Below are positions 20,139-45,999 of a DNA stretch of 64,000 bases, piece by piece (the stretch's first letter is position 1; each line of letters begins with the position of its first letter). The stretch is taken from positions 20,693-84,692 of the forward strand of contig CACXNL010000003.1 in NCBI GenBank assembly GCA_902769055.1. Direction: 5' to 3'. A program made the position numbers and the translations under genes. This stretch comes from an uncultured Pseudomonadota bacterium (GTDB lineage: Bacteria; Pseudomonadota; Alphaproteobacteria; RUG11792). Under the pieces are notes generated by a model that ran no database searches, had not been told where the DNA came from, and saw only the letters and a program-made list of their open reading frames with translations.

Positions 20139-21773
20139 TTAGAACCAACCACGGACTGTGGCACCAATCCTTGATAATGCGCTCATTGTCTGGCTAGCTG
20201 CGGCTACCACTCGCCTTATAATAGGTCTAATCCACCTCTCATAGAAGCCCTGAGGACGCTGCTCTATTTTTATTACTTTGTTATGATCATCATTTATGAT
20301 TCGCGCTTGTTTGTTATTTTCGGTCTTCGGTTTATTTTCTTCGGCTATATTGCTCGGATTATTGGCACGCTTTATGTTTTGCGCCTGCTGATTATCGTCT
20401 TTCTCTTTATTCTCACCAGTAGTCTTTTGTGATTCCGTCGTTGACACCTCATTCTCTTCGGCGTTTTCAAATTTATGTGCCTGAGGCTCTTCAGTGTCAA
20501 TGTGGTTTTCTTGTATATTTCTCAATTGTAGTTCCGTGTTTCCTTGCTCATTTATGTGGATCTCATGGTTCTCGGGTTTATCAACTATTGTGTTCTCGAC
20601 TTTGTTGTCTTCTTCGTCATTCGGTTCCGTCTTATTCACTGCTTGATTATCCTTGTTAATCTCTGTCTTGTCTTCCTCCTCATCTGATCTTTCTAGGACT
20701 TCCTGTATAGATAGCTCGTCTTTTTTTTTGAGCTCGTTTTCATCAAGAGCAGGTTGTTGATTTTCGTCATTTAGATCAATTTCCAACTTAATCTCATCAC
20801 GTTTATCACTTTCTTCGTCTGACGGGATCCCCTCTGGCTCCTCGCGCGCTAGTTTCTGGAAAAATTTATCCTGCTGTGCTTGGTTGTGCTGGGCGGTGAG
20901 CTTTTTATACTCGTTTTCTTCTTTCTCCCAGTCAATCGCGCTAATCTCGTTCTTAGGTAGTATCGGGTACTCTTTATGATCTTCTTCATACTGTTCCTGT
21001 AATTGATAATAGAGCTTCTGCGTGCTTATTCTGTGTCTGTTATTACTTAGCCATTTTCTAATTTTTTTCTCTTGTTGGTTCATCTTCTTCTTGTCTGTGG
21101 GTTGAGGAGTATAACCATTGAACATGTAGTATATGTTTAATGGTGTCCTATGTTGGTCACCAAACGCCGATATATTAACACATGGCAGTTTGTCGCAGCC
21201 TTTGAACATTCCATTAGTGTTTATCACATTAGATGTATCGAAAGTCCACATATGTAACTGTCTCAAGTTCTTTAGACCATTGAACATGTTAGTCATAATC
21301 ATAGTCTGGCTGGTATCTACAGACCTAAATTGTATGCTCCATATTGACGTCGACTTATTGAACATCGCGCTACAATCCATCGGCATCTTGACCTTTTTCC
21401 CATGCTCCTCACCAATGATCAGGTGCAACTGCAATTTGGGTGAGTCAAGTCCAGCAAATGCGTCGTCAGCCAATACAACTCGCTTACCGCTAATTTCTCC
21501 AGGAATTGCTAATGTCAGTTCAACATCCCGAGACGGCTTCTGCGTCATAACCAACTTCAAACACACTTCATCCCCAGTCGATCCAGGAACCGTTATGAAT
21601 TTTAGAAACTGCGATTTTAGCTGTGTAGATATTTTGTTCCGCGTGGCTTGGTCTCCAAGATTGCAAAGCAGATTTTGCCTTGCTACGGCGCCATGCGCTA
21701 CCTCAAGACTACTCATTGCCGCGAGCAACACCGCTCCGCTCAGTAACAAGGTTCTGTTTTTCATTTCCATCAT
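20139..21773 (-). CDS. Family member F: secreted protein with a BspA/DUF285-like repeat region, acidic C-terminal half and conserved basic Trp tail
   Basis: 544 aa. Signal peptide MKNRTLLLSGAVLLAAMSSLEVAHG. Repeats of the form MFN..........D.S (CSAMFNKSTSIWSIQFRSVDTSQTMIMTNMFNGLKNLRQLHMWTFDTSNVINTNGMFKGCDKL). E/D/N/K-rich tail region. C-terminus FYERWIRPIIRRVV...RGWF. Confidence 0.75.
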   Translation of the reverse strand: MMEMKNRTLLLSGAVLLAAMSSLEVAHGAVARQNLLCNLGDQATRNKISTQLKSQFLKFITVPGSTGDEVCLKLVMTQKPSRDVELTLAIPGEISGKRVVLADDAFAGLDSPKLQLHLIIGEEHGKKVKMPMDCSAMFNKSTSIWSIQFRSVDTSQTMIMTNMFNGLKNLRQLHMWTFDTSNVINTNGMFKGCDKLPCVNISAFGDQHRTPLNIYYMFNGYTPQPTDKKKMNQQEKKIRKWLSNNRHRISTQKLYYQLQEQYEEDHKEYPILPKNEISAIDWEKEENEYKKLTAQHNQAQQDKFFQKLAREEPEGIPSDEESDKRDEIKLEIDLNDENQQPALDENELKKKDELSIQEVLERSDEEEDKTEINKDNQAVNKTEPNDEEDNKVENTIVDKPENHEIHINEQGNTELQLRNIQENHIDTEEPQAHKFENAEENEVSTTESQKTTGENKEKDDNQQAQNIKRANNPSNIAEENKPKTENNKQARIINDDHNKVIKIEQRPQGFYERWIRPIIRRVVAAASQTMSALSRIGATVRGWF

Positions 21774-21804
21774 AAGAAAACACCTCTATAAAGTTTACGG
21801 AGTA

Positions 21805-21833
21805 ATTCTATCCCCCCCCCCCACCTTCGTCAA
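21805..21833 (-). promoter_or_regulatory. Predicted sigma70-type promoter of family gene F with a G11 tract in the spacer
   Basis: Minus strand reads TTGACG-aaggt-G11-a-TAGAAT, giving a 17-nt spacer. The tract is C11 at 21812-21822 on the plus strand. Confidence 0.55.
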
Positions 21834-21901
21834 CATATTTTTTATTATTTTTATCCAAAATTATTCATAAAAATAAAATTCGTGATAAAACTCTAAAAAC
21901 A

Positions 21902-22954
21902 TTAGCTTAATTTTGTGCTTTTTGAGATAATTCCTCCGCCGATGACGGCGTTATTTTCATTGTATATTGCACAGATTTGTCCTGGAGTTACAGGTGTTTT
22001 TGACATTTCTAGAAGCTCAATGGTAGCTCCGGTTGCAGTTTTTGTTACCGTAGCGCTAGTCTTTGCTGCCGATGAACGCAATTTTACTTTTGCTTCAAAT
22101 TTATCCGGGCAATCCATTATCCAATTCGTCGCAAACAAGTCAAACTTATTACGGCGTAATTCCTCCAATGAACCGACAGTGATCTGATTATTACTTCGTT
22201 CGACGTCGACAACATACAGTGGTTCGTTATATGCAACTCCGACACCTCGGCGTTGCCCGATGGTGTAATTTTCAATACCGTTGTGCTTTCCCAAGATTTG
22301 CTTTGTACCCGCCAAAACAATATCTCCCGGCACTGACAAATTCATATTTGAATAAAACTCGTGTAAAAAATCTTTGTAATTCCCATGCTTAATAAAGCAA
22401 ATATCCTGGCTATCCTTCTTATCAAAATTCGGCAATCCAAATTCCACCGCCATTTTTCGTGTTATCGATTTATCCTCAATTTCACCTAACGGGAACCGCA
22501 CGTACTTCAAGTTATTTCTATCTACCAGCGATAAAAAATAGCTTTGGTCTTTGTGCGCATTCGCCGCTTCCAGCATTTCCACATTGTCGCCATCGACATT
22601 CATACGTATGTAATGCCCGGTCGCCATTAAATCCGCCCCATGTGCCAATGCAAACTTCAGCAATAAATTCATCTTTATGTCTCTATTGCACAATGCACAG
22701 GGGTTCGGCGTCATTCCATTCGCGTAATATTCAGCAAACACATCCATAACACATCGCTTATACTCATCGCGCGCCGACATTACGTAATGCTTTATGCCCA
22801 AAATATCGCAAACTTGCCGCGCATTCTCTATGTCGGATACCCAATCTGCGTGGTTATCCATCGTTATTCCGAATATTTCGTGACCCTGTGATTTCAACAA
22901 AGCGGCGGTAGTCGAAGAATCGACCCCGCCGGACATAGCTACTGCGATGACCAT
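21902..22954 (-). CDS. mnmA: tRNA-specific 2-thiouridylase
   Basis: PP-loop AVAMSGGVDSS begins right after Met at 22954. DQSYFL motif present. The ORF-track extension to 23104 overlaps the upstream transporter; TAATG stop/start overlap at 22954. Confidence 0.92.
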   Translation of the reverse strand: MVIAVAMSGGVDSSTTAALLKSQGHEIFGITMDNHADWVSDIENARQVCDILGIKHYVMSARDEYKRCVMDVFAEYYANGMTPNPCALCNRDIKMNLLLKFALAHGADLMATGHYIRMNVDGDNVEMLEAANAHKDQSYFLSLVDRNNLKYVRFPLGEIEDKSITRKMAVEFGLPNFDKKDSQDICFIKHGNYKDFLHEFYSNMNLSVPGDIVLAGTKQILGKHNGIENYTIGQRRGVGVAYNEPLYVVDVERSNNQITVGSLEELRRNKFDLFATNWIMDCPDKFEAKVKLRSSAAKTSATVTKTATGATIELLEMSKTPVTPGQICAIYNENNAVIGGGIISKSTKLS

Positions 22955-24066: not shown

Positions 24067-24206
24067 AATGCTACTTCTTACAAAACGGATATACGCACGG
24101 ATTATACCACAGTTTTGCGAAAGGTTAGGTTAACAGGAAATCAGTGGCTGTATGAAAGTGTTTATGGCATCGAAAATTTCAATCTTTAGCTTTGCAATAG
24201 AACTGA

Positions 24207-24235
24207 TTGCCGGCGATTTTTATAGATGTTAGAAT
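24207..24235 (+). promoter_or_regulatory. Predicted sigma70-type promoter of dapD
   Basis: TTGCCG - 17 nt - TAGAAT, 30 nt upstream of ATG 24265. It overlaps the ORF-track start at 24226, which argues for the downstream start. Confidence 0.5.
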
Positions 24236-24264
24236 GGCGGGTTAGTACGTTTTGGAGATCTAAT

Positions 24265-25035: not shown

Positions 25036-25042
25036 GATATAT

Positions 25043-27115
25043 CTATTGGACGTATTGGTTTACGAAATTCGCAAATATTGGCAAAGCAACTTTTGCTCCA
25101 GTCATATGTTCTCCGAGCGATTTGGGGGTGGAGTAGCCGACGAAAGTGCAGACCAGCAGTGTTCTGTCGGCTTTCTTTACTGCGCCTAAAAACCAAGCAT
25201 CTTTATAGTCGTTTGTAGTGCCTGTTTTACCGAAAAGTTTCACATTATATTTGTCCTCTAAATCGGCTATTTTACTGCCGGTGCCTACAACTACCGCATC
25301 GTGAAGTATATTTTGCATCACTTTAGCGGTACTTGGGGATATCACATTTTTCTGGCGCTGTGTCACTACCAAATCATTTATATTTGCCTTCATTATAAAT
25401 TTCGGATGGACGATTTGCCCATCGTTAAAAAATGCCGAGAATGCCTCAAGTAACTTCACTGGACAAACCTCTATGGAACCTAAAACCGCCGATATTGGAA
25501 CATTTCCTTTCGTTAATTCAAAAGACTTCAGCGTCTGTGAAATCTTGTCCATCCCGATCTCCAGCGCCAGATTAACAGTAGAGAGATTGCGCGAATATAT
25601 AAGACCATCCCGCAAATACGTTTCTCCATGCGCTTTACCGTCGTAATTATGTGGCGTATACTTCTCGCCACTCTTCAACGTTATCGTCACCGGCTTATCA
25701 TAAATAAGGTCGTATTCGTCCTTGCCATTTTCCAGCGCGGACGCATATACAAACGGCTTTATTGTCGAACCCGGTTGGCGCATAGCCTGCGTCATACAAT
25801 TAAAAGCACTAATATCGGGACTGTATCCACCAACTAACGCCAAAATATCTCCGCTGTGAGCATCCATAACGATTATGCCACCGGTAACCTTCGGCGTTTG
25901 ATACAATTCATATGAGTTCTTGCCAATCTCACGACATAACACAACATCTCCTTTCTTAAATTTCGCGTCCTTATATTTGGTGCTATTTGCCCAAACATCG
26001 ATAGTCTTCCCATTCGAAGTTTGGCTCCTTATGCAATCTTTTAATACGTCCTTCACAATACACGCCTGGATTTTGCATATTGTTGTCGGTAAGTTTGCAT
26101 TTAGTTGCTCCAAATTCATATCAGGATTTTTTAGCACGTTCCCTATAGTTCCATTCCACCGCGTCCGCTTCGTATACTCAATCAGCCCATCTTCCAGAGC
26201 TTTCTGTGCCATATACTGTATCTTTCTATCAAGCGTCGTCGTTATCTGATATCCATTTCTGAAAAAATCGTTGCGTGAAATAGCTTTAGTGACTATTCTG
26301 AATATCTCATCAGAAAAATACGGCGCGCGTAGTTTCTGCTTCTTATGTTTTATTTTAATTGGTTTGTTAAAGTATTTCTTAAACTGCGTTTTATCAATAT
26401 ACCCCATTTCATGCATTTGATTTAAAATAGCATTTCTTTTTCTGAGCAACTTTAAAGAGTTTTTCTTATTTATATATACCATCGGCGCGCTAGGTAGCGA
26501 AGCCAGAAATGCCGCTTCGTGTGGCTCAATCTGATCAAGTTTCTTGCCAAAGTAATAATCGCAAGCCTCAGCTATTCCATAGCAACCTTTGCCCAGATAT
26601 AGTTGGTTTAGGTAAAATTCCAAAATCTTATCTTTGGGGATTACTGCTTCTATACGGAATGCCATTATTGCCTCCCGGATTTTTCTAGTTATGGTTCTGG
26701 CATTTCCAACTAGCAAGTTCTTCGCTATCTGCTGAGTTATGGTTGAGCCCCCCGCTGGCTTCCTTGTCCAATTCTTCCGTGCTGTATTATCTGTTATCGC
26801 GCGAAATAAACTTGTTATGCTTATTCCTGAATGATTGTAGAATTCCCGATCCTCGGCAACTATGAATGCTCCTTTTATAATTGTCGGAATTTTATTTAAG
26901 TCCGTTATAACACGATGCTCGATTGCGTATTCTTCAATCAATTCGCCGTCCCGTGAAAAAATTCGCGTCGTTCTGGGGGGGCTGTACCTGACCAAAGTTT
27001 GGTCGCTCGGCAAATCCTTTCCAAAAATATACAAAATAGCAAACGCTGCGCTAGCTAGTACAAAAAAAATACTGATGATGTAGAATACCAAACTCGCAAC
27101 TCGCTTCGGTAACAT
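25043..27115 (-). CDS. mrcA: Penicillin-binding protein 1A (bifunctional transglycosylase/transpeptidase)
   Basis: 690 aa. N-terminal anchor, GT51 motifs AEDREFYNHSG, GGSTITQQ, RKIREA, and transpeptidase motifs STIKP and KTGTTN. Confidence 0.9.
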   Translation of the reverse strand: MLPKRVASLVFYIISIFFVLASAAFAILYIFGKDLPSDQTLVRYSPPRTTRIFSRDGELIEEYAIEHRVITDLNKIPTIIKGAFIVAEDREFYNHSGISITSLFRAITDNTARKNWTRKPAGGSTITQQIAKNLLVGNARTITRKIREAIMAFRIEAVIPKDKILEFYLNQLYLGKGCYGIAEACDYYFGKKLDQIEPHEAAFLASLPSAPMVYINKKNSLKLLRKRNAILNQMHEMGYIDKTQFKKYFNKPIKIKHKKQKLRAPYFSDEIFRIVTKAISRNDFFRNGYQITTTLDRKIQYMAQKALEDGLIEYTKRTRWNGTIGNVLKNPDMNLEQLNANLPTTICKIQACIVKDVLKDCIRSQTSNGKTIDVWANSTKYKDAKFKKGDVVLCREIGKNSYELYQTPKVTGGIIVMDAHSGDILALVGGYSPDISAFNCMTQAMRQPGSTIKPFVYASALENGKDEYDLIYDKPVTITLKSGEKYTPHNYDGKAHGETYLRDGLIYSRNLSTVNLALEIGMDKISQTLKSFELTKGNVPISAVLGSIEVCPVKLLEAFSAFFNDGQIVHPKFIMKANINDLVVTQRQKNVISPSTAKVMQNILHDAVVVGTGSKIADLEDKYNVKLFGKTGTTNDYKDAWFLGAVKKADRTLLVCTFVGYSTPKSLGEHMTGAKVALPIFANFVNQYVQ

Positions 27116-27117
27116 CG

Positions 27118-28753: not shown

Positions 28754-28783
28754 TTAACATATGTCGCGGGGGGTGGGGAATTG
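28754..28783 (+). promoter_or_regulatory. Family promoter module of gene E with an interrupted tract (G6-T-G4)
   Basis: TTAACA-tatgtcgc-GGGGGGTGGGG-aattg. Same layout as the other family promoters, but the tract is broken by T at 28774 and no good -10 hexamer follows. Confidence 0.35.
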
Positions 28784-28811: not shown

Positions 28812-29946
28812 ATGCAAATGAATGAAAGTAGAGCTCTTTTGCTTGCCGGCGTTGTGATGTTTTCGGCGGTGAGTAGTGTACAGGTAGAATGTCTCCGAAG
28901 CGGATACCAGTGCGCAGTTGCCTTCGTTTATACGCATGAAAATAGGCGACTACGACAATGGGCGACGTTTAGAGTCTTTTTACATTGATGGGTGCCTGGA
29001 TGAATTGACTGATGTGACAGTGATTATTTCTGGAAAGAATGGTCGGTTTTGCCTGGGTGGAGGATGCAAGCCGTTTTTTAACTTAAACATTGAGAACCTC
29101 AGGTTGCATTTGTCCATTGAGAACGGCGTTGAACTACTTGGGGATTGTAGTCAGTTGTTCTATAACTCGTCGTCGATATACAGCATTAAGTTCGAGAATG
29201 TAGATACAAGCCGGATGACCTCGATGAAAGAAATGTTCTGTATTTGCCCGAACATTTCTGAATTAGACTTACGTTCTTTTAACACGAAGAACATAGATAA
29301 GGAAGAGATGGGGTTTTTGTTCAATAGTTGTAACAGCTTGGTTAAGCTGAACATAGCTTCGTTTACAGAAGAACAGAAGGGCACCGATAATGTGCTGAGG
29401 ATGTTTGTTGGTGGTGACGTATTGAAGTCGTTGTCGTTTGACAAAAAACTGGCTTACATCCGCGCTATAAGAGGCAAAGTGGAGATCATAGAAGACGATG
29501 TTGCATGTGAAAACAAGTTTTTGCAATTTGAGCAGCATAGTGGTGAACCTAGTTCATCACAACCGGTGGCTATTGAGTCGGAAAAGGACGAGGATTTGAA
29601 ACTTAATAGCAAAATAACATTGAAGCAAAAGGGAGAACTGACGATCCTAGCGCCTGAAAAATCGAATGAAGTTTCTCATAAAGAAAACAGCCAACTTAAA
29701 GCTGATGTCGAGCGTGAAGAACCGTTTAACAGATTAGAAACACCAATTTCGAGCAGTACATTTAAAAAGAATTCTGAGATTTCGATCGCGAGACCACAGG
29801 TAGTAATAACTAAGGACGATAAAGAAAAAGCAAAAACTGCAACAGTTGAGGTGCAACAATCAAAGCAACATAAACCTTGGTATACTCCTATAGTTAAATT
29901 TTGCAGCTGGGTAAAACGCACAGTTTTGTCATGGTTCGGACGCTAA
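28812..29946 (+). pseudogene. Family member E (DUF285/BspA-like repeats), disrupted by a frameshift between the signal peptide and the body
   Basis: The signal peptide MQMNESRALLLAGVVMFSAVSSVQVE is in one frame (stops at 28988). The homologous body (from 28888, ..SAQLPSFIRMKIG.., DUF285-like CSQLFYNSSSIYSIKFENVDTSRMTSMKEMF, tail KPWYTPIVKFCSWVKRTVLSWFGR) is in the +1 frame. The required shift lies between 28888 and about 28910. Confidence 0.6.
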
Positions 29947-30003
29947 AATAGGTGACGGGTGAGCCAACAAAGGTTCACTCGTTGTGATTTGCGTGTAACG
30001 CGC

Positions 30004-30012
30004 GGGGGGGGG
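30004..30012 (+). repeat. Orphan G9 tract inside a degenerate copy of the family promoter module
   Basis: gtgtaacgcgc-G9-tgtggattgtgg resembles gtgttaacatatgtcgc-G6TG4-aattgttc at 28751. It lies 16 nt upstream of the argS -35 box and no family gene follows. Confidence 0.6.
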
Positions 30013-30027: not shown

Positions 30028-30056
30028 TTGACCAAATTGCTAAAGTGGGGTACAAT
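30028..30056 (+). promoter_or_regulatory. Predicted sigma70-type promoter of argS
   Basis: TTGACC - 17 nt - TACAAT, 39 nt upstream of ATG 30095. Confidence 0.55.
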
Positions 30057-30094
30057 TTCCGGTATTCGTGTTATAGTTGCCGGTTCTGTTAGAG

Positions 30095-31837
30095 ATGTTT
30101 CAAGCGATACGTGAGTGTATTTTTGATGGTATGAAGTCGTTTTTAAAGGCGGAGACGCTTGTTAGAAGCACGGATGTTCTTGTAGAGCAGCCGAAAGACA
30201 AAGCGTATGGCGACTTATACACCAATGCTGCGATGATTTTTGCGAAGCGTCTGGGCGTCGCTCCGAAAGTTCTGGCTAAGGCAATCTGCGAGGCGTTACG
30301 GAAAAGTGAGGATGTTGCATCAGCATCAATAGCGGGCGCCGGTTTTGTGAATTTTAAATTGCGTAGTGAGGCTTGGCAGAAGGTTATACCTGAAGTAATC
30401 AAGCAAAAAAAAAGCTATAGCTATTCGAATGTTTTTGGTAATACTCCGATAAATCTTGAGTTTGTTTCGGCAAATCCGACAGGTCCTTTGCATACCGGGC
30501 ATGCGAGGAATGCTGTATTTGGAAGTGTTGTCGCAAATTTGCTAGAGCGCATTGGGTATAAGGTCACACGAGAATTTTACATAAATGACCAGGGACACCA
30601 AATAAAATTTTTGGCGAAATCTGTGTATCTGCGGTACTGCGAGCTGCTGGGAAAGGAAGTTTCTGAGAGCGATTTCACCTCCGATATGTATTGTGGCGAT
30701 TACATTAAGGATTTGGCGAAAGAGCTGGTAGAAAGCTATAGTGGCAAGTTTTTGGACAAAGAAGAAGCGGACTGGTTGGATTTTTTCTGCCGCTATTCTA
30801 TCGATAGAATGCTGGAGAACATCAAAAATGACCTGGCACTTCTCGGCGTTGTTATGGATAAGTACTCTTCCGAAGCGGAGTTGTGCAAACGTAATCTTGT
30901 TAACGAAGCGCTGGATATTCTGAAGAAACACGATGATATTTACGAGGGCGTGTTGCCGAGACCTAAGGGAATCACCGATGCGGACGACTGGGAAGAGCGT
31001 CCCCAGACCTTGTTTAAGTCGACGAAATATGGTGATGACGTTGACAGAGCTATACGTAAGTCCGACGGCACATGGACGTATTTTGCTGGGGATTTAGCGT
31101 ATCACCTGGACAAGATACAGCGCGGATACTCAAAAATGATAGCGATTTTGGGCGCTGACCATAACGGGTACGTGAAGCGGCTGAAATCGGCTGTAAGTGC
31201 GCTAAGTGGTGGAAAAGCCTCTTTGGAGGTACGGCTGTACCAGTTGGTAAATTTTCTTGAAAATGGAAAGCCAGTTAGGATGTCGAAGCGTGCCGGAACC
31301 TTTATAACACTGCGGGAAGTTGTGGAACGTGTAGGCAAGGATGTCACACGTTATATGATGATTTCGCGGCATCACGACGTTATGATAGATTTCGATTTCG
31401 TGAAAGCGGTCGAGCATTCGATGGATAATCCGCTGTTCTATATACAATATGCGTATGCGCGAATTTGTTCTGTTTTCAGGCATTTTGAGGCAGAAAATGG
31501 AAAGATAAGCGAGGATGAGCTTGTGAATTGCGACAAGTCTATACTGTCTGACGACGCGGAAATTTCGCTTATGAAAGCCCTGGCTTTCTGGAAAGAACAA
31601 GTAAAATCAACAGCGCTCGCGATAGAACCGCATAGGATACCTGTATATATGCAGAATATAGCGTCACTTTTCCATTCGTTGTGGAATAAAGGCAAGTCGA
31701 ATACGGAGTTACGTTTTATCGATCCGACGAACAGGAACGATACGGTGGCTCGATTGTCTCTATTGATGGCAACAAAGAGCGTCTTAGATGATGGATTTGC
31801 TATAATGGGGATAACTCCAATGTCTGAAATGAGATAA
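30095..31837 (+). CDS. argS: Arginine--tRNA ligase
   Basis: Class I motifs SANPTGPLHTGHARN (HIGH) and MSKRAG (KMSKS), plus the DALR anticodon-binding C-terminus. The ORF track starts at TTG 30077; the first ATG is at 30095. Confidence 0.93.
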   Translation: MFQAIRECIFDGMKSFLKAETLVRSTDVLVEQPKDKAYGDLYTNAAMIFAKRLGVAPKVLAKAICEALRKSEDVASASIAGAGFVNFKLRSEAWQKVIPEVIKQKKSYSYSNVFGNTPINLEFVSANPTGPLHTGHARNAVFGSVVANLLERIGYKVTREFYINDQGHQIKFLAKSVYLRYCELLGKEVSESDFTSDMYCGDYIKDLAKELVESYSGKFLDKEEADWLDFFCRYSIDRMLENIKNDLALLGVVMDKYSSEAELCKRNLVNEALDILKKHDDIYEGVLPRPKGITDADDWEERPQTLFKSTKYGDDVDRAIRKSDGTWTYFAGDLAYHLDKIQRGYSKMIAILGADHNGYVKRLKSAVSALSGGKASLEVRLYQLVNFLENGKPVRMSKRAGTFITLREVVERVGKDVTRYMMISRHHDVMIDFDFVKAVEHSMDNPLFYIQYAYARICSVFRHFEAENGKISEDELVNCDKSILSDDAEISLMKALAFWKEQVKSTALAIEPHRIPVYMQNIASLFHSLWNKGKSNTELRFIDPTNRNDTVARLSLLMATKSVLDDGFAIMGITPMSEMR

Positions 31838-35958: not shown

Positions 35959-36368
35959 TTCATTCTTCTTACAAAAAAGCAAGGAATGCTCCTGTGCAAA
36001 AATTGTGTCGCACACAATGCGTCGTTATTTGCGTTGAGGTTATCGCAAATTTTATGGATTAAAGCTATAAAATCAAGGCTTCTGGTGCGATTTTTATTTT
36101 TTTATACGATTTTGGTAAAAAAAGTTAAAAAATGTGTTGACAAAAGTCGCGGGGGGAGAATTAACTCGTGGTTTTGAAAAAGGTATTAAAAAATGCAAAT
36201 GAAGAAAAACAAAGTCCTGTTATTGAGTGGCACAGTGCTGTTTTCAGTGATGGGCGGTATCGAGAAAGCTAATAGCACCGAAATGCAAAACGAGATGAAC
36301 ATAATCAACGAAGAGAGACCCGTTGTGACAACAAATGTTGAGGAAAACAAGGCTCCGCGCATGGATGA
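35959..36368 (+). repeat. Family 5' cassette, copy A (upstream region, promoter, 5' UTR and first ~58 codons)
   Basis: Near-identical by eye to 41553-41963 (inverted) and 45042-45370 (direct). Similarity ends abruptly after the codons for ...ENKAPR. Confidence 0.8.
36137..36161 (+). promoter_or_regulatory. Family promoter of gene A with a G6 tract in the spacer
   Basis: TTGACA-aaagtcgc-G6(36151-36156)-AGAAT. If the -10 box is GAGAAT, the spacer is only 13 nt. Confidence 0.45.
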
Positions 36369-37412
36369 TGAGATAAAGAAGCGTACTGAAGAGCTTCTGG
36401 GAGGCGGGAAAAATATTGATATTCCTGATGACGGGAGAGAATACGTAGTAGTGCACCGCTTGAAAAAATTAAGAACGGATAAAGATATCGATAATGAGTT
36501 GCAAGTTGCTGTGCACCTGGCAGAGAGGGGAGAAGTATCCCTCCAATATTACAACGAGGATTTGCGAGAGTACTTTGAGGGGGAGAGACGTTTACGCGCA
36601 ACTTGGCTGCCGATTTGGGTCTAGAGGGTGTGCCATACGTAAGACCAGAAAATAAGGATAAAAAGCTCGACAATCAAGAATACGTTAAAGAGGAACAAAA
36701 TGAACCATATCGAATTGAGAAAAGCGACAGCAACGTTGACGTAAACTTGCAAGAATGTAAACTGGACTTCCGAGAACTCAAAAAGGAAGAGGAAGATAAA
36801 AAGCAGGACGAGAAAACAGAGCTGAATAATGAGGAAATAAACAATACCAACAATGAGGGCAATGATTTCAACATAAATAACGAAAAACAAGAGCCGGAAG
36901 TTCAAAACACCGCATACATCAATCTTGACGTGACGAAGAAAACACCATACTTTTTCCACGAAGATGAAGACTCAAATGACAACGACCCTACAATGTTGCG
37001 CGATATGCTCCAATATGAAGGCGAGGGCAAGAATGGCAACGAAATACAACAGATAGAGTTAAAAAACGAGATTGATAATGACAACGACATAATAAACTAT
37101 GAGCCAAACAACGACATACTAGGGAACAGCGAAAAAGATCCAGAGTTTCTTGCCAATGAGATGTATGAGAAAGTCACAGGGCAAAAGGTTCCGGAGCACA
37201 TACTAGCATATCAGCGCAAGATATATAATACGTATAAAATTGAGGATAAACAACCTGAGCACTCGATCGATATAGAAAAGGCAACTCACAAGACCTGGTT
37301 CCAAAAAGCGGTAACGACGGTAAAGAGTGGATTAAGTAATGCATGGTCAACTGTAAAACGCGGGTTTAGCTTTGGGTGGAGCAAAGTAAAATCTTCTGTA
37401 TTCAAATGGTAG
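36193..37412 (+). pseudogene. Family member A, split by a frameshift at an internal G5 tract
   Basis: ORFs 36193-36624 (signal peptide and N-terminus) and 36603-37412 (acidic core and tail KTWFQKAVTTVKSGLSNAWSTVKRGFSFGWSKVKSSVFKW) are in different frames. The downstream frame opens exactly at G5 (36579-36583). Paralog B reads GAG GGA GAG AC at the same place (G3). Confidence 0.7.
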
Positions 37413-37440
37413 TAATTGGAAATCAAAACTGAAATCAGCG

Positions 37441-37472
37441 GAGCATCACCTTAGCGGGTGATGCTCTTTTTT
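37441..37472 (+). terminator. Rho-independent terminator of family gene A
   Basis: GAGCATCACC-ttagcg-GGTGATGCTC followed by T6. Confidence 0.75.
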
Positions 37473-40810: not shown

Positions 40811-40841
40811 AAAAAGCACATCACCCGTTCAGGTGGTGTGC
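40811..40841 (-). terminator. Rho-independent terminator of family gene B
   Basis: Minus strand reads GCACACCACC-tgaacg-GGTGATGTGC (one mismatch) followed by T5. The sequence is related to the gene A terminator. Confidence 0.65.
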
Positions 40842-40866: not shown

Positions 40867-41724
40867 TTACTTCAACTTAAAGACAGATTTTACTTTTTGC
40901 CATCCAAAGGTAAATCCGCTCTTAATAGCAGTCCAGGCACGGGTTATTCCGCTCTTGACTGTAGTCGCCACTTTGCTATACCAAGGTTTTAACTCTATCT
41001 TCTTTTCGATTATTGTAGATTGACCTTTAAAGAATTCGTTATATTTTATTGGTATTGGTGATTCTTGCTTTTTTACGAAATCGGGCACAGATTGCCCTGT
41101 CTTTTCTTCGTATATTTTATTGAAGGGAAGTGCATCGGCCTCCTTTCTTATGCGGTCACCCTCGCCTTGTTTCTGTGTGAGAGTTATGGTTCCAGTATTA
41201 TCGTTACTCTCTTTAGAAGTACTCAGTTCCTTATTATTCTTTTTATCGTCATTCGTTTTGTCGTCGTTCTCACGTTTTAGATCATATATCTCATTTTCGA
41301 TGCTTAGATCTTGATCGTCGTCTTCTGGGAGCTCTATGATGCTGTGAAGTTTGTTTAGGTATTTACTCGATATTATGAAACTCTTGTTTAGTATGTCGTT
41401 GTGATCTTTCGCCTCTGTGTCCTCCTTATTATCTTTTTCATCCTCGTGATTGTCGGTTAGACCAGATTGCTTCTGATTGTTATTCCTGACGTACGGTACC
41501 CCCACCTTACCTAACGCTTTAGCTACAGTGACAGGCATAGTCTCTCCCTCATATATTCGCGGAGCCTTGTTTTTCTCAACATTTGTCGTCACAACAGGTT
41601 TCTCATCATTGATGATGTTTATCTCGTTCTGTATTTCAGCGCTATTAGCTTCCTCGACACTACCCGTTACTGAGAACAGCACTGTGCCGCCCAATAATAG
41701 AGCTTTGTTTTTCTTCATTTGCAT
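40867..41724 (-). CDS. Family member B: secreted acidic protein with the conserved Trp/Lys tail
   Basis: 285 aa. MQMKKNKALLLGGTVLFSVTGSVEEANS signal peptide, D/E/N/K-rich core, tail KPWYSKVATTVKSGITRAWTAIKSGFTFGWQKVKSVFKLK. Confidence 0.8.
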   Translation of the reverse strand: MQMKKNKALLLGGTVLFSVTGSVEEANSAEIQNEINIINDEKPVVTTNVEKNKAPRIYEGETMPVTVAKALGKVGVPYVRNNNQKQSGLTDNHEDEKDNKEDTEAKDHNDILNKSFIISSKYLNKLHSIIELPEDDDQDLSIENEIYDLKRENDDKTNDDKKNNKELSTSKESNDNTGTITLTQKQGEGDRIRKEADALPFNKIYEEKTGQSVPDFVKKQESPIPIKYNEFFKGQSTIIEKKIELKPWYSKVATTVKSGITRAWTAIKSGFTFGWQKVKSVFKLK

Positions 41725-41963
41725 TTTTTAATACCTTTTTTAAAACCACAAGCTAATTATCCCCCCCCGCGACTTTTGTCAACACATTTTTTAACTTTTT
41801 TTACAAAAGTCGTATAAAAAAATAAAAATTGCACCAGAAGCCTTGATTTCCTAGGCTAAATGTATAGAATTTGCGATAATTTTTTTTTGGTAACGGCGAC
41901 GCATCATGCGCGACGCAATTTTTGCACAGGCGCATCCCTTGCTTTTTTGTGAGAAGAATGAAT
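41553..41963 (-). repeat. Family 5' cassette, copy B (inverted relative to copies A and C)
   Basis: The reverse complement aligns by eye with 35959-36368 from gaattCATTCTTCT.. through the promoter, 5' UTR and first ~58 codons. Confidence 0.8.
41756..41782 (-). promoter_or_regulatory. Family promoter of gene B with a G8 tract in the spacer
   Basis: Minus strand reads TTGACA-aaagtcgc-G8-ATAAT, so the -10 box is GATAAT and the spacer is 15 nt. The tract is C8 at 41761-41768 on the plus strand. Confidence 0.5.
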
Positions 41964-41990
41964 TCTGATACCTCCCTACGCAATTACACC

Positions 41991-42067
41991 TGGTGTCCCC
42001 GGTGGGATTTGAACCTACGACCTCAGGATTAGGAATCCTACGCTCTATCCATCTGAGCTACGAGGAC
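41991..42067 (-). tRNA. tRNA-Arg (anticodon CCU)
   Basis: 77-nt cloverleaf on the minus strand: acceptor GTCCTCG/CGGGGAC (one G-U), D-arm GCTC-AGATGGATA-GAGC, anticodon arm TAGGA-TTCCTAA-TCCTG, T-arm GTAGG-TTCAAAT-CCCAC (one A-C mismatch), ACCA end. Confidence 0.85.
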
Positions 42068-42249
42068 ACGCGCTTCATTGTAGCACGTAGGCGCCGGTGC
42101 CACAAACCATCTTCTACCGCAACGAATAATTGTCACTGGTGGCGGGAGAAAAAATTCAATAAATGCCGAAAACTTAAGCTGTCCATCACAAACGTTAGAA
42201 ATATTTCTCGCATGTGTGTTTTGAACAAAGAAAAATGTTAACAAATATG

Positions 42250-42278
42250 TTGCCGTGAGCAATGATATGAGTTACAAT
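42250..42278 (+). promoter_or_regulatory. Predicted canonical promoter of family gene G, with no homopolymer tract
   Basis: TTGCCG - 17 nt (tgagcaatgatatgagt) - TACAAT, about 34 nt upstream of GTG 42312. The flanking sequence (aaaaatgttaacaaatatgttg) matches the family promoter module. Confidence 0.55.
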
Positions 42279-42311
42279 TGCTCTGTAAGTTTTAAAGAGG
42301 TGTTTTTTAAG

Positions 42312-43352
42312 GTGGAGACAAGAAATATAGTGCTGAGCGGTGCCGTGCTGTTTTCGGTAATCGGAAGTGTAGAGGTGGCGAATGGCGCTGTGTTAAATCA
42401 AGAGATGAAATCAGAATTGGGGGGGGGCAACCACAATTTTCGATCTTCGCTAGCTCCTCTGAAAGGCAAATCTGAATTTGCGGAAGATGCAATAACGCAA
42501 TTGCCTTTGGGGAAAACTAGTAAACCTGGTTTGCTACAGCACGATATGCGAAAAACAGCGGCTATGAGTGAGGATCTTGGTTATCTCAGCACTGAAGGTG
42601 ATATGGCTGAAGATGACCTAGAAGAGCAAAATGCAAATATTTCAGATAATTCCATTGAATTATATATTGTCAATGAAAATAAAGTTGACAAAGGTGAAGA
42701 AATACGTACACACAAAACCATGATAAGCGTGTTGGACGAATTTAAGGACGACGCCTATAACGATGCAAAGAACGAAGATATAAACGAGAATAGCGCCGAT
42801 AAGGAATATGATTTCGATATTGATGATGATCCCGAATATGACGAAGCAGTAAGAAAGCACAAAGATATGATGAAGCGAGGATGTGAAGATAAAAAGGAAT
42901 ACAGTAGCCATGACACTCAAAACGTTGAGGAGTTTATACAGCCTGCGGAGCCACAAAATAGCGGGCGTACTGAGATAACAGAACAACATCGCTACAGGGT
43001 ATCGTCATTTACCATGGAGTTCTCGCCAACGTCATTTACCATGAATCAATCGGGTAACATGACGTTTTCTATAGTGAAGGAAAAAGATTGTGCTGATGAC
43101 GATATCTACCGTCAGCTTTACGAAGTTGCCATGAAGAAAGCCGACGAGACATGGAAGCATGAGCTGTGGATGCAACAACTCTCTTGGTTTGAGCGCACTG
43201 TATACAAGCTGAAAAAGTCGGTGAGTTGTATCGTGCATAAAGCATGCACAACCTTATCAAGGTTTGCGTCCAAATTCACGTCTATCTTCAAAAAGAAGAA
43301 TAGTTCGATTATTTCAAAGAGGATACGTGGAGAGGTTCCGCCTCTAGCGTGA
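42312..43352 (+). CDS. Family member G: secreted acidic protein with a G9 tract in the coding region
   Basis: Probable GTG start after AAGAGG. Signal peptide (V)ETRNIVLSGAVLFSVIGSVEVANG, acidic core, basic tail LSWFERTVYKLKKSVSCIVHKACTTLSRFASKFTSIFKKK. The ORF-track ATG at 42255 lies inside the predicted promoter. Confidence 0.7.
   Translation: METRNIVLSGAVLFSVIGSVEVANGAVLNQEMKSELGGGNHNFRSSLAPLKGKSEFAEDAITQLPLGKTSKPGLLQHDMRKTAAMSEDLGYLSTEGDMAEDDLEEQNANISDNSIELYIVNENKVDKGEEIRTHKTMISVLDEFKDDAYNDAKNEDINENSADKEYDFDIDDDPEYDEAVRKHKDMMKRGCEDKKEYSSHDTQNVEEFIQPAEPQNSGRTEITEQHRYRVSSFTMEFSPTSFTMNQSGNMTFSIVKEKDCADDDIYRQLYEVAMKKADETWKHELWMQQLSWFERTVYKLKKSVSCIVHKACTTLSRFASKFTSIFKKKNSSIISKRIRGEVPPLA
42419..42427 (+). 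repeat. Intragenic G9 homopolymer (codons for Gly-Gly-Gly) about 36 codons into gene G
   Basis: gaa ttg GGG GGG GGc aac. Read by hand, a -1 slip reaches TAG after 10 codons and a +1 slip reaches TGA after about 19 codons. Confidence 0.9.
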
Positions 43353-43562
43353 GAGGATTACTTTTTCACTAATTACGAAGCTGTTGATGAGACATCATCG
43401 TCAGCTTCAGTGCGTGAAGCGGGCGATGCTACGTTTCGTGGCTGTGTCGTTATAAGCAAAAAGGATTGTAGCAAAATCTCCGATTTCTCGAATGGTAAAT
43501 TTGGACTTCGGACATAAGGATAAACTTTTTGGATAATTTTTAACATAAAAGATACAAATAGT

Positions 43563-43591
43563 ATTGACATATGATGCGGGGGGGGGGACAA
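43563..43591 (+). promoter_or_regulatory. Family promoter of gene D with a G10 tract in the spacer
   Basis: TTGACA-tatgatgc-G10(43577-43586)-ACAAT, so the -10 box is GACAAT and the spacer is exactly 17 nt. Confidence 0.55.
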
Positions 43592-43623
43592 TATGCCCCG
43601 TAAACTTCGATGGAGTGTTAAGA

Positions 43624-44919
43624 ATGAAAAGAAATAATTTGTTGCTGGGCGGCACAGTGCTGTTCTTGGTATCTGGGGGTATGGAGATGGCACATGCCTC
43701 TGAGATGAAGCATGAGGTGACCTGGAAGACGCGACTGAATTTTGATATGCCAAAGACAATAAGTCAAAAGCTGGGAGCGCCGGAAAGAGGTTTCCGCTCT
43801 GCGCAAAGGATAATGCAGGGTGGTAAAGCTCACACAAAGTTGCCTAGTTTTCAGAGCAACAGTACAGAGGATGATCAAAGCGACGGCAACGGGGTGGCTG
43901 AGGAGTTAGATCAAAAGTTTGTCAGTGGACAAAAGATACGCGAAGATTTTGAATACAACGTGGGCATGGAGGAGTTCGGCGAGGAAACACTCGGTGAAAA
44001 TCTCCCTGGGGTAGGGAAAGTATCTGGAAGCGTAATTGGCACTTCGGGCTCGTATTTTAAGAACACCGTTCACAAGAAGGATGGCGTGGATCTTTCGGAG
44101 AAGAGTATCGACCCAAAAGTTAAGGCGCAAAACACGTATAGTTTTACGCAAAAAAGCAAAGAGTTCGATGACATGATGGGGCTAGATGAAGGCGTCGATC
44201 CGATCAGCTGCTTAGTTCCGAGTTCAAATAAGGGTGATAAGAATGACGTGGCTCTCGGGAAAGTACATCCATACAGTCCTAAAAGTGCGTTAAGGTACTT
44301 TACGCATACGCATAAGAAGGGGGATCGTCGTGAAGGTAATGAATCTGAGATAATAGAACCGCAGAGTGCCTTGTATAACATAAGCAATGCGATTACCACG
44401 AACAAGCTGGAGATTAACGACAAGAAAAACGAGGACGATGAAGAAATACCGAATATAAAGAGAAACCTAGGCGAGGACTTTGCTGAGGATTTCCAGAATG
44501 AAGACGAGGTGAACGATAAGGAGAACGCAATTGGAATAAAGGAAGATCAAGGTAATTGCTCAGAAGATGTTAAAGGGGACGATAAAATCGAAAACGCTAA
44601 TAATGAAGAGAAAGTAAAAGGAGAATCAGCCGATAAAGACGCGCAGTTGAATAATATAGCCCTGAACGCGAGCAAAGAACTTCAGATTAACGAGCAGGTT
44701 TTGGGCAAACAGACCACAGATGAAATAATCGACCCGAGTACTAAACAAAGCGAGACTATAAAGAAGAACAGCGACGATGATAATAATAACAAAATAGTCG
44801 TTGAGTATGAAAAGCCAAGAAAGTGGTACAGTGGTATTATTTCAGTAATAAAGCGCGCTGTAAATTACGTGGTAACTTCCATCAAATCTGGATGGAAAAG
44901 TCTGAAATCTCGATTTTAA
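43624..44919 (+). CDS. Family member D: secreted acidic protein with the conserved Trp/Lys tail
   Basis: Start MKRNNLLLGGTVLFLVSGGMEMAHA after GGAG. 431 aa. E/D/N/K-rich C-terminal half. Tail RKWYSGIISVIKRAVNYVVTSIKSGWKSLKSRF. Confidence 0.8.
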   Translation: MKRNNLLLGGTVLFLVSGGMEMAHASEMKHEVTWKTRLNFDMPKTISQKLGAPERGFRSAQRIMQGGKAHTKLPSFQSNSTEDDQSDGNGVAEELDQKFVSGQKIREDFEYNVGMEEFGEETLGENLPGVGKVSGSVIGTSGSYFKNTVHKKDGVDLSEKSIDPKVKAQNTYSFTQKSKEFDDMMGLDEGVDPISCLVPSSNKGDKNDVALGKVHPYSPKSALRYFTHTHKKGDRREGNESEIIEPQSALYNISNAITTNKLEINDKKNEDDEEIPNIKRNLGEDFAEDFQNEDEVNDKENAIGIKEDQGNCSEDVKGDDKIENANNEEKVKGESADKDAQLNNIALNASKELQINEQVLGKQTTDEIIDPSTKQSETIKKNSDDDNNNKIVVEYEKPRKWYSGIISVIKRAVNYVVTSIKSGWKSLKSRF

Positions 44920-44929
44920 ACTTACTTCC

Positions 44930-44963
44930 GGAGCGAACTGATACAGGCTCGCTCCGTTTTTTT
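44930..44963 (+). terminator. Rho-independent terminator of gene D
   Basis: GGAGCGA-actgatacaggc-TCGCTCC, then G and T7. Confidence 0.7.
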
Positions 44964-45041
44964 AAATCACCATAGATAAAGGATTGTGCTCTTCTGTGGG
45001 ATTAGCGCTAGCTGGGAGATGCGTTACTTTCGACGAAAGAA

Positions 45042-45370
45042 ATTGTCGCAAATTTTACAGATTAAAGCTAGGAAATCAAGGCTTCTGGTGCAGATTTTAT
45101 TTTTTTTACGATTTTGGTAAAAAAAGTTAAAAAATATGTTGACAAAGGTCGCGGGGGGGAGAATTAACTTGTAGTTTTGAAAAAGGTATTAAAAAATGCA
45201 AATGAAGAAAAACAAAGTCCTGTTATTAGGCGGCACAGTGTTGTTCTCAGTAATGGGCGGTATCGAAAAAGCTAATAGCGCAGAAATACAGAACGAGATA
45301 AACATCATCAACAAAGAGAAACCTATTGTGATAAACAACACTGAGGAAAACAAGGCTCCGCGCATGGATG
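45042..45370 (+). repeat. Family 5' cassette, copy C
   Basis: Aligns by eye with 36040-36368 (..tcgcaaatttta..aatcaaggcttctggtgc..ttgaca..atgcaaatgaagaaaaacaaagtcctgttatt..). Confidence 0.75.
45139..45164 (+). promoter_or_regulatory. Family promoter of gene C with a G7 tract in the spacer
   Basis: TTGACA-aaggtcgc-G7(45153-45159)-AGAAT. With a GAGAAT -10 box, the spacer is 14 nt. Confidence 0.45.
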
Positions 45371-45999
45371 AGAATGTTAACAATATCGAGAATCCAGTGA
45401 ATATCGATATTCAGAAGCGTGTAAAAGAGGTGCTAGGAGACGGTGATGACTTCGAAGATCCTAAGGATAGCAAAGAGCGAGTGGTATTTAATCCATGCGA
45501 TACGGATGAGAAAAAGCAAGAGGGGATACTGCTGAACATAGAATATGTAGAACGAGGTGTCCAGAATGTAAAAACTGCAAACCACGCTATAACTGATGTA
45601 CTGGAGGGGCAAACGGTCGAAAAGGAGTATATAGATCCAGGCATGGAACCGTATTGCAAACCGTATACACCGAATAAAAACGAGAGCAATGAAGAAGATA
45701 AGAAGGAAAATGACAATAACATAATAACAAAAACGACAAATGAAATTGAGTTCACCAAAATGTATGAACAGGAAACAGGTCAAAAAGTTACTGACAGCGT
45801 CAAGCAAATGCAGAACGAGATACTAAGCAAGTACACCGTTGAGACTAAGAAACCTATGGATGCGAACGATGTAGAGCAAGCGAAGTCGGTGACTTGGTAT
45901 GGCAAAGTCTTCAATAAGGTCAAGCATGGACTCAATTATGTTTGGACTAGTATAAAGACTGGATGGAGCAAAGTAAAGTCTATTTTTAAGTGGAAGTAA
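45196..45999 (+). CDS. Family member C: secreted acidic protein with the conserved Trp/Lys tail
   Basis: 267 aa. MQMKKNKVLLLGGTVLFSVMGGIEKANS signal peptide. Tail VTWYGKVFNKVKHGLNYVWTSIKTGWSKVKSIFKWK. Confidence 0.8.
   Translation: MQMKKNKVLLLGGTVLFSVMGGIEKANSAEIQNEINIINKEKPIVINNTEENKAPRMDENVNNIENPVNIDIQKRVKEVLGDGDDFEDPKDSKERVVFNPCDTDEKKQEGILLNIEYVERGVQNVKTANHAITDVLEGQTVEKEYIDPGMEPYCKPYTPNKNESNEEDKKENDNNIITKTTNEIEFTKMYEQETGQKVTDSVKQMQNEILSKYTVETKKPMDANDVEQAKSVTWYGKVFNKVKHGLNYVWTSIKTGWSKVKSIFKWK

Follow-up and report, generated by a model that had tools for sequence, protein, structure and literature searches.

Contingency loci have been described in several pathogens and include the promoter tracts of opc and porA and the signal-coding repeats of opa in Neisseria, hif in Haemophilus, fim in Bordetella, and the poly-G genes of Campylobacter jejuni. 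The Vlp genes of Mycoplasma hyorhinis form a clustered family with a conserved 5' region (promoter and signal peptide), a homopolymer in the spacer between the -35 and -10 hexamers, independent switching, and divergent charged surface regions. General background on homopolymer and short-repeat contingency loci is given in PMC11868660 and PMC2831843, and the Vlp system is cited within the former (its references 20-21). In this work, a family of seven loci (A to G) encoding predicted Sec-exported proteins was analysed in a stretch of 64,000 nucleotides (nt) from an uncultured alphaproteobacterium (GCA_902769055.1, contig CACXNL010000003.1, positions 20,693 to 84,692; hereafter the window). We propose, with an estimated probability of roughly 0.6, that these are contingency loci encoding lineage-private Sec-exported proteins that are stochastically switched by slipped-strand mispairing at poly-G tracts. 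The genes are probably switched on and off at random in the manner of pathogen surface antigens.

Comparison with known systems

The family resembles the Vlp genes in the features named above, with its switching and surface location being predicted. The Vlp tract is poly-A, whereas the tract of the family is poly-G. The Vlp proteins have a lipobox Cys and an N-terminal lipid anchor, whereas the family has no Cys near the cleavage site. The variable part of Vlp proteins consists of tandem repeats and is followed by no C-terminal tail, whereas the family has no tandem repeats and ends in a putative amphipathic helix. The Vlp host is a wall-less mollicute, whereas the organism studied here is a diderm alphaproteobacterium. 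The two families are not homologous in sequence, and the analogy is one of mechanism only. Assignment to the Vlp-type variable lipoprotein class was rejected because of the missing lipobox Cys and tandem repeats.

Like the Neisseria, Haemophilus, Bordetella, and Campylobacter loci, the family has poly-G/C runs in the spacer or the early open reading frame (ORF), strain-variable tract length, conserved flanks, and a predicted on/off effect through the spacer or the frame. Those loci belong to free-living or facultative pathogens in which switching has been proven experimentally, whereas the present family belongs to an obligately host-associated order, its proteins are unrelated to theirs, and its switching is inferred from comparative sequence.

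Three other groups of proteins share some features with the family. The DUF285/BspA-like leucine-rich repeat (LRR) proteins (PF03382) carry an adhesin-type domain and are usually located on the surface of microbes that live with hosts. Both F and G exceed the Pfam threshold for this domain, and a confident beta-rich repeat domain is predicted by AlphaFold2 (AF2). This likeness is confined to F and G, in which the domain is short (one Pfam stretch of ~90-100 residues) and the signal, acidic region, and tail are foreign to BspA-like proteins; the F model gave no significant Foldseek match. Escherichia coli PBP5 and PBP6 are also Sec-exported with a cleaved signal and a C-terminal aromatic/basic amphipathic helix, which attaches to the membrane surface. 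The PBP5 helix has about 18 residues and follows an enzyme, whereas the tails of the family have 30-40 residues and follow acidic, disordered cargo; there is no sequence similarity, and membrane binding of the tails is proposed by analogy. Ehrlichia tandem repeat proteins (TRPs) and Anaplasma Msp2/P44 are acidic, disordered or surface-exposed host-interaction proteins that are likewise diversified by host-dependent alphaproteobacteria. Unlike the family, TRPs have no Sec signal, are exported by type I secretion, and have C-terminal signals poor in Lys and Trp, and Msp2/P44 are beta-barrel porins that are varied by gene conversion from silent cassettes. Neither group is known to use homopolymer switches. 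The family appears to belong among the contingency-locus families of surface or secreted proteins. The proteins themselves are unrelated to those of the compared systems, with no lipobox and with a C-terminal module that matches nothing in Pfam or the PDB.

The seven loci and their shared promoter module

All seven loci bear ORFs or ORF pieces according to the ORF listing and frame-by-frame translation. B, C, D, E, and F are intact, and A and G are frame-disrupted. Their features are as follows, in window coordinates.

F promoter module: 21805-21833, minus strand; TTGACG, 17-nt spacer with G11 (21812-21822), TAGAAT
Gene F: 20139-21773, minus strand; 544 amino acids (aa), intact; signal peptide, DUF285/BspA-like domain at ~55-255, predicted acidic disorder at 311-508, predicted C-terminal amphipathic helix
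F tail coding: 20142-20246, minus strand; predicted C-terminal amphipathic helix
F hairpin: 20106-20129, minus strand; after the stop, perfect 11 bp, no T-run, z = -2.5
G promoter module: 28754-28781, plus strand; TTAACA, 16-nt spacer with interrupted G6TG4 (28768-28778), GGGAAT
Gene G: 28812-29946, plus strand; signal frame from 28812, body frame 28894-29946 with DUF285 domain and shortened tail
G tail coding: about 29860-29943, plus strand; shortened tail
G hairpin: 29954-29983, plus strand; 3' of the stop
A promoter module: 36137-36161, plus strand; TTGACA, 13-nt spacer with G6 (36151-36156), GAGAAT
Gene A: 36193-37412, plus strand; two ORFs, 36193-36624 and 36603-37412; tail coding 37275-37409
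A terminator: 37440-37467, plus strand; 3' of A
B promoter module: 41756-41782, minus strand; TTGACA, 15-nt spacer with G8 (41761-41768), GATAAT
Gene B: 40867-41724, minus strand; 285 aa, intact; signal peptide, predicted acidic disordered core, predicted tail helix (coding 40870-41004)
B terminator: 40822-40835, minus strand; 3' of B
E promoter: 42250-42278, plus strand; TTGCCG, 17-nt spacer without G tract, TACAAT
Gene E: 42312-43352, plus strand; 346 aa, GTG start, intact in the window
E intragenic tract: 42419-42427, plus strand; G9, codons 36-39 directly past the signal peptide, in frame in the window
E tail helix coding: about 43179-43298, plus strand; followed by a 17-residue extension
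D promoter module: 43564-43592, plus strand; TTGACA, 17-nt spacer with G10 (43578-43587), GACAAT
Gene D: 43624-44919, plus strand; 431 aa, intact; tail coding 44803-44916
D hairpin with U7: 44929-44963, plus strand; 3' of D
C promoter module: 45139-45164, plus strand; TTGACA, 14-nt spacer with G7 (45153-45159), GAGAAT
Gene C: 45196-45999, plus strand; 267 aa, intact; tail coding 45874-45996
C terminator: 46024-46053, plus strand; 3' of C

The upstream alignment was constructed from 160 nt 5' and 180 nt 3' of the seven starts. The module consists of an A-rich stretch, a -35 hexamer (TTGACA except in F, G, and E), a spacer of nnnGTCGC followed by the G run, and a -10 hexamer that ends in invariant AAT. 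The leader from the -10 hexamer to the ATG is invariant (31-32 nt) and contains an AAAGG/AGAGG ribosome-binding site. The -35 hexamer, the tract, the -10 AAT, and the ribosome-binding site occupy fixed alignment columns. Since the distance from -10 to ATG is invariant, all length change sits in the tract. The G9 run of E lies three codons 3' of the predicted cleavage site. A mutable repeat of about 7 or more units in the spacer or in the 5' part of the ORF, as is typical of contingency loci, is found in B, C, D, F, and E; the tract of A is G6 and that of G is interrupted.

Such runs are rare elsewhere in the window, which has 42% G+C. G7 matches, counted with overlaps, number 19 where 1.9 are expected, and a single G/C run of 8 or more (30004-30012) falls outside the family promoters and E. 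The consensus promoter scanner, which needs a spacer of 16-18 nt, calls D, E, and F only, and the 13-nt spacer of A is too short for a sigma-70-type promoter. An Rfam scan of the window returned four tRNAs and nothing else, which means that the conserved 5' module does not correspond to a known RNA.

Compared with two intact orthologues, gene A has gained 2 nt (G3 to G5) at 36579-36583, which breaks its frame. The intact orthologue P0006 (424 aa) is 78% identical, and the public protein collection lists precisely these halves of A as two entries, P0014 and P0015. In gene G, a deletion of ~14 nt at the signal-cleavage region, seen in the alignment with the paralogues, places signal and body in different frames, and G is probably a pseudogene.

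The preliminary description of this DNA had listed the seven loci at these coordinates, and each one bears coding sequence. It had treated them as intact, which the frame disruptions of A and G contradict. It had also reported a hairpin downstream of five genes with a 10-bp stem in F, whereas hairpins were found after the stops of all seven and the F stem has 11 bp. The promoter modules that it had assigned to each gene are present and represent one common module with a variable poly-G tract, which is intragenic in E.

Two runs outside the family promoters were also identified. The G9 run at 30004-30012 lies between the G terminator hairpin and an argS promoter-like site (TTGACC at 30028, TACAAT at 30051). 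Its surroundings, GTAACGCGCG9TG, are loosely like the family module, and it may be a relic module copy or may affect argS. A C7 run at 26975-26981 (coding strand) encodes Pro-Pro in frame, ~45 codons into a PBP1a-like gene (25043-27115, minus strand), and is probably incidental.

Tract polymorphism between lineages

The window was compared with a sister lineage (L001-L003 and L091) whose housekeeping proteins are 91-99% identical to those of the window. The promoter tract of A is G6 in the window, G11 in L001 and L003, and G14 in L002, with conserved flanks. The tract of B is G8 in the window and G9 in L001 and L002. The tract of F is G11 in the window and five assemblies and G12 in L091. The tract of D is G10 in the window and in L001-L003. 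In a more distant species, two near-identical promoters have G11 (L094) and G8 (L096). The intragenic tract of E is G9 in the window and G8 in L001-L003, which is the sole difference in 240 aligned nt, and the G8 form splits the gene into products of 61 aa and 263 aa.

Assemblies of the same strain repeat these lengths (F G11 in five, C G7 in two, B G8 in one, and D G10 in three), although some of them may share raw reads. The length differences are unlikely to be random assembly error because several same-strain assemblies give the same lengths. Repeat number differs between close relatives, the flanks are conserved, and an on/off effect is predicted, as in known contingency loci; judged from these alignments, tract differences with conserved flanks are the signature of slipped-strand phase variation. 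The term variable in the preliminary description, which had missed the tracts, gains direct sequence support from them in the sense of phase variation.

The tracts also create a problem for annotation, where gene callers split or extend genes (P0013 and P0019 are extended, A is cut into P0014 and P0015, and E is truncated in P0034). The public gene calls for the L094 and L096 members (P0013 and P0019) start 5' of the promoter and read through the tract (MLTKVAGGENRY...), and the real start is METKN or METRN. Contigs L005, L006, and L099 end at or just 3' of a tract, as if assemblies break there.

Signal peptides and cores

A hidden Markov model (HMM) of the first 40 residues matched exactly the seven loci among 1,400 six-frame window fragments (E of 1e-14 to 1e-24, next best E>1). 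In leave-subfamily-out tests, models of the N-terminus trained on one subfamily still found the others with E of 1e-3 to 1e-6 (27,085 fragments). The common signal peptide that had been claimed earlier is thus confirmed across the subfamilies. By inspection, the N-termini consist of a K/R n-region, a 15-residue h-region, and an A-x-[SAG] cleavage site, which appear in the alignment as MQMKKNK, VLLLGGTVLFSVMGG, and IEKANS/A (the slash marks the cut). The sites read AHA/S in D, AHG/A in F, and ANG/A in E, and the region is deleted in G. The basic n-region, the hydrophobic h-region, and the small residues at -3 and -1 are those of Sec and signal peptidase I substrates. Inspection of the alignment showed no lipobox Cys and no twin Arg in the family N-termini. 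Lipoprotein, twin-arginine translocation (Tat), and type I secretion readings were dismissed on sequence features.

All-against-all BLAST showed that A, B, and C are full-length paralogues (E of 1e-39 to 1e-42), that D shares both ends with them, and that E shares the N-terminus only. F and G are paralogous (E of 1e-20), and each has a DUF285/BspA-like domain. PF03382 was matched with E=2.3e-7 and 31.0 bits in F and with E=4.7e-6 and 26.8 bits in G, against a cut-off of 25, and had no match in A-E. Neither the complete proteins nor the N-terminal block or the tail profile matched anything in Pfam, NCBIfam, or the PDB sequences, apart from DUF285 in F and G. The cores are acidic, with isoelectric points (pI) of 4.5-5.4, 19-26% Asp plus Glu, and Asn up to 12%, and no tandem repeats were found in them.

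The AF2 model of F has a beta-rich domain at 55-255 with a predicted local distance difference test score (pLDDT) of 80-94, falls below 50 at 311-512, shows disorder at 311-508, and has a tail helix at ~509-543. The AF2 model of B, which was built with the family alignment, has a mean pLDDT of 42 and a terminal helix at 247-283. A short better-predicted motif at 201-220 of B corresponds to the conserved '...NKIYEQETGQKVPD...' block. A Foldseek search of the F model against PDB gave no significant match, and the weak top ones include the BspA-like LRR structures 4fs7 and 4h09 with E of about 0.5. An autotransporter or outer-membrane beta-barrel was rejected on the absence of a Pfam or NCBIfam barrel domain and on the AF2 prediction of disorder plus one helix.

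The C-terminal tail

The tails of A, B, C, and D are clearly homologous (HMM E of 1e-20 to 1e-25). The A-D tail HMM gave E=1.9 for G and E=9.2 for E, and F was undetected. Profile-profile comparison gave P=8.5e-5 for the E type versus the ABCD type and P of about 3e-3 for the F/G type versus either. Alignment of the F and G tails shows that 11 residues are deleted in G. P0035, a distant E orthologue (40% identical), starts with METKN and ends in ...TSWF, and its end ...LSWFGRIIRVVKKAAVSTVNIARSSWTKFTSWF is by eye intermediate between the F type and the A-D type. All tails are co-linear, aromatic, and basic (pI 10.2-12) with 30-40 residues, and they are terminal except for the 17-residue extension of E. 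Every subtype has one invariant Phe within 1-4 residues of the C-terminus, the exception being the window E with that extension. We regard the tails, from these alignments, as one module class, whose shared ancestry is established for A-D and only likely in the case of E, F, and G.

The helical hydrophobic moment of the tails over 30 residues is 0.45-0.57, which exceeds the 99.5th percentile of 14,493 housekeeping-protein background windows in six of the seven. The mean hydrophobicity is about 0, and this combination with a high moment in a Sec-exported protein is the sequence pattern of a PBP5-type anchor. Among the 66 window ORFs of at least 150 aa, a basic, aromatic, and amphipathic C-terminus was found in family members only. 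F orthologues with an overall identity of 61% have almost the same tail. AF2 predicts the tail as one continuous 35-residue helix with a confidence of only about 50, and searches of Pfam and PDB with the tail profile gave no match. By analogy with PBP5, the helix may lie in the membrane plane or bind anionic envelope lipid and thereby tether the protein, and the tails are probably membrane or envelope anchors. An outer-membrane beta-signal was also considered for the terminal aromatic residue of D, F, and P0035, but the preceding residues are helical amphipathic and not alternating.

The earlier claims on the proteins fared unevenly. The charged, acidic nature of the cores was borne out. Common C-termini hold firmly for A, B, C, and D, whereas those of E, F, and G are weakly related in sequence and are alike in length, position, charge, aromatic residues, and amphipathicity. 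The cores had been called unrelated, which applies to the other cores and not to the full-length paralogues A, B, and C or to F and G with their common DUF285 domain. The statement that the family was not recognised stands for the A-E type, the signal peptide, and the tail, which have no known-family match; F and G carry the DUF285 domain.

Recombination and rearrangement

The orthologues have fast-evolving or mosaic cores between conserved ends, and F is mosaic. The identities between the window and the sister lineage are 61% for F (orthologue P0022), 78% for A, 93% for D, and 98.6% for B, against 91.5-99% for flanking housekeeping genes. The synonymous divergence (dS) of the F core is 0.6-1.2 with a high nonsynonymous divergence (dN), whereas dS is 0.05 in the signal and 0.04 in the tail, and 0.06-0.26 in the neighbours. 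B (compared with L002, 9821-10678) has a dS of 0.012 beside 0.195 for ftsH and 0.378 for glmM. The low synonymous divergence at the ends and in B is not explicable by protein-level constraint, which argues for recombination. The pattern suggests that cores were replaced by other alleles and that whole genes were recently exchanged, and the comparison indicates as likely that B was exchanged very recently between the lineages as a single gene. The window B protein had no exact counterpart in the look-up and is therefore a slightly different allele from those on record, although the B promoter of L097 is the same as that of the window.

A, B, and C have 5' modules that form repeats of 330-410 nt (86-90% identity) in direct and inverted orientation. 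These modules and the tRNA genes are placed as follows.

A 5' repeat module: 35959-36368, plus strand; upstream region, promoter, signal peptide, and first ~57 codons
Repeats of the A 5' module: 41548-41962, minus strand (gene B), and 45036-45372, plus strand (gene C); 86-90% identity to the A copy
tRNA-Arg(CCT): 41991-42067, minus strand; within the block bounded by the inverted 5' modules of B and C
tRNA-Met(CAT): 46162-46238, plus strand; C1:A72 mismatch; cluster boundary

The block of 5' module (minus), tRNA-Arg, E, D, and 5' module (plus) is collinear in both lineages. This E-D block is joined to the B and C bodies in the window and to a C-like pseudogene and the A bodies in L001, so the 5' modules also mediate rearrangement. 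The two tRNA genes agree with the tRNA-Arg and tRNA-fMet that had been placed in the cluster, and tRNA-Met(CAT) is probably the initiator because the C1:A72 mismatch fits an initiator tRNA.

Broken copies number at least five across the window and relatives. In L001, a C-like gene (3428-4601, minus strand) is split into 81 and 308 aa, E (5046-6157, plus strand) is split at the G8 tract, and a lone tail fragment (559-1020, plus strand) has a G7 run before it. P0020 is a 79-aa frameshifted A-like product.

Proposed mechanism and alternative explanations

Gain or loss of G in six genes would alter the -35/-10 spacer (13-17 nt in the window; in relatives up to 18 nt, with tracts up to G14) and thereby the strength of the promoter. 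Judged by spacer length, the 'on' range would include D, E, and F (17 nt) as well as G (16 nt), and A, B, and C (13-15 nt) would be 'off' or weak. In the window strain, D, E, and F would be expressed, B and C would be low, and A and G would be inactive. The E switch would act on translation because its spacer is fixed at 17 nt and its tract lies inside the ORF past the signal peptide. Signal peptidase I would cleave after A-x-[SAG] and release an acidic, largely disordered, and fast-diverging mature product, in which the DUF285 repeat domain of F and G would be N-terminal to the acidic part. The cationic, Trp/Phe-rich amphipathic helix of 30-40 residues would then tether the protein to the membrane or to anionic envelope lipid. 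The conserved ends would double as recombination anchors by which cores are exchanged and gene order is shuffled.

Several points weigh against switching at the tracts or against the export and tethering proposed with it. The tract lengths are assembly consensus values and not reads, whereas within-population heterogeneity is the defining mark of phase variation, and the consensus length is identical in every assembly seen within one strain. The tract of the distant E orthologue is interrupted (GGGGGAGG). The -10 hexamers are weak (GAGAAT, GACAAT, GGGAAT) and the promoters were assigned by consensus only; the intact B and C have spacers of 13-15 nt, so most copies would be silent. Two of the seven window copies and several in relatives are frame-disrupted outside long tracts, which together with a dN/dS of 0.3-0.8 is compatible with partial decay. 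Tail homology across the subfamilies is statistically weak (P of 1e-4 to 3e-3), and a soluble, non-lipidated, non-barrel protein would have to cross the outer membrane of a diderm. The preliminary description had suggested variable surface or host-interaction proteins of an intracellular bacterium. A lineage-private family with constant export and tail ends, variable middles, and a host-dependent bacterium agrees with this, and the equal relation and unrelated cores on which it was also built are inaccurate.

An alternative that keeps phase variation is that the tail is a sorting signal: after Sec, a dedicated outer-membrane step would release the proteins to the surface or to the cytoplasm or vacuole of a (ciliate) host, where the acidic cores would act as effectors. 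The tail stands at the extreme C-terminus with its invariant Phe, is far better conserved than the cargo, and is found on unrelated cargos (DUF285 domains and several different disordered cores). Phase-variable proteins normally face outside, and Holosporales are host-dependent (PMC11909080). Against these points, none of the genes is linked to a translocon candidate (an orphan tssG is all that the window contains), type VI substrates do not use Sec, and the tail is unlike any known secretion domain in the Pfam and PDB searches. The 17-residue extension after the tail of E, which is present in two lineages, disfavours a strict requirement for a free C-terminus. We consider this alternative possible and on balance unlikely. 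Slightly more speculative is the wider proposal that the tail of 35-40 residues is a new display or sorting module by which Sec-exported, non-lipidated, non-barrel proteins reach the cell surface or host membranes, and that together with the poly-G switches it would produce a combinatorially variable coat of an obligate protist symbiont. If true, this would be the first contingency-locus system described in Holosporales and a new surface-attachment route. If it is an anchor or a sorting signal, the tail would be a compact and possibly new envelope element.

It is improbable that the poly-G tract is a promoter or regulatory element, such as spacer DNA or a regulator site, that came along with the duplicated 5' module and shows neutral indels or assembly errors, and that the genes are conventionally regulated and encode partly decaying envelope proteins. 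The consistency of lengths among assemblies of one strain, the G10 of D in both lineages, and the breakage of A and G outside long tracts are in its favour. L002 has G14 in the A promoter where L001 and L003 read G11+AGA with the same total length, which looks like a base-calling artefact. However, the variation is concentrated in the tract with identical flanks, the lengths range from 6 to 14 across paralogues and orthologues, and E has swapped its promoter tract for an intragenic one where a frameshift is an immediate null. The near absence of other long G/C runs in the window and the fact that a tract in the spacer is an established switch of several pathogen surface-protein genes also argue for contingency loci. 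A coiled-coil oligomerisation element forming periplasmic or secreted multimers is highly improbable for the C-terminal helix: inspection shows tail hydrophobics at a 3-4 spacing over about five heptads and AF2 predicts a continuous helix, but that helix has low confidence, and the frequent Trp and Phe on the hydrophobic positions with a Lys/Ser/Thr/Gly-rich polar face are typical of interfacial membrane helices and unusual in coiled-coil cores.

Organism, distribution, and neighbouring genes

ArgS, whose gene adjoins G, shares 83-59% identity with metagenome-assembled genomes that are labelled as Alphaproteobacteria or Holosporales and come from the rumen of goat, cattle, and roe deer. The codes of some ArgS-matching isolates were taken by us to denote termite-gut samples. 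Further ArgS matches fall below 40%, and by these matches the organism is a Holosporales alphaproteobacterium from the rumen. The next-best matches of ArgS (argS at 30077-31837) are from Coriobacteriia/Eggerthellaceae and other gut anaerobes (34-39%) and not from other Alphaproteobacteria. This hit pattern may be an effect of the pattern-based scan or may reflect a laterally acquired argS in the clade.

The family comprises six clusters among 5.8 billion proteins. An exhaustive profile search returned 12 clusters among 1.84 billion representative proteins, all of which are family members or fragments, and no relatives of the tail or the signal alone on other proteins were found among these representatives. 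Every source that was traced is a rumen or ruminant-gut assembly. A search of the GTDB species-representative genomes with the family alignment, including the closest genome (ArgS 83%), gave 76 pattern matches, none of which was confirmed. The argS neighbourhoods in 29 related Holosporales genomes had no family member and no G orthologue, and the exact promoter pattern had zero matches in the JGI metagenomes. A full-text search of the literature found no paper linking phase variation with Holosporales, and a 2025 review of the group is silent on it.

Holosporales are reported to live in obligate association with eukaryotes, for the most part protists, and to include an uncharacterised clade from guts (PMC11909080). 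Their host interaction mechanisms are described as poorly understood, and a type VI system, conserved but non-standard, is the sole proposed candidate (PMC11909080). The family would be a concrete alternative candidate, with Sec-exported proteins that carry adhesin-type domains or acidic disordered cores. From stochastic switches it would follow that a symbiont of rumen protists, despite its dependence on a host, meets a selective agent that varies, such as different hosts, host defence, digestion, or phages.

The genes around the family are housekeeping genes and the orphan tssG. The ORFs at 2907-4103 (plus strand, 398 aa), 47781-48812 (plus strand, 343 aa), and 51201-51863 (minus strand, 220 aa) have no Pfam match and no family signal or tail. 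The tssG homologue (46255-47349; PF06996, 1.5e-47) stands alone beside tRNA-Met, with no type VI family match in the Pfam-scanned neighbouring ORFs. L092 (3587-3637) and L093 (3099-3149) contain 51 nt that the window lacks at position 47281, near where the tssG ORF ends, and are otherwise 100% identical to the window over 3.1-3.6 kb. The end of tssG is shifted by this difference, the length being 343 aa in L092 and L093 and 364 aa in the window.

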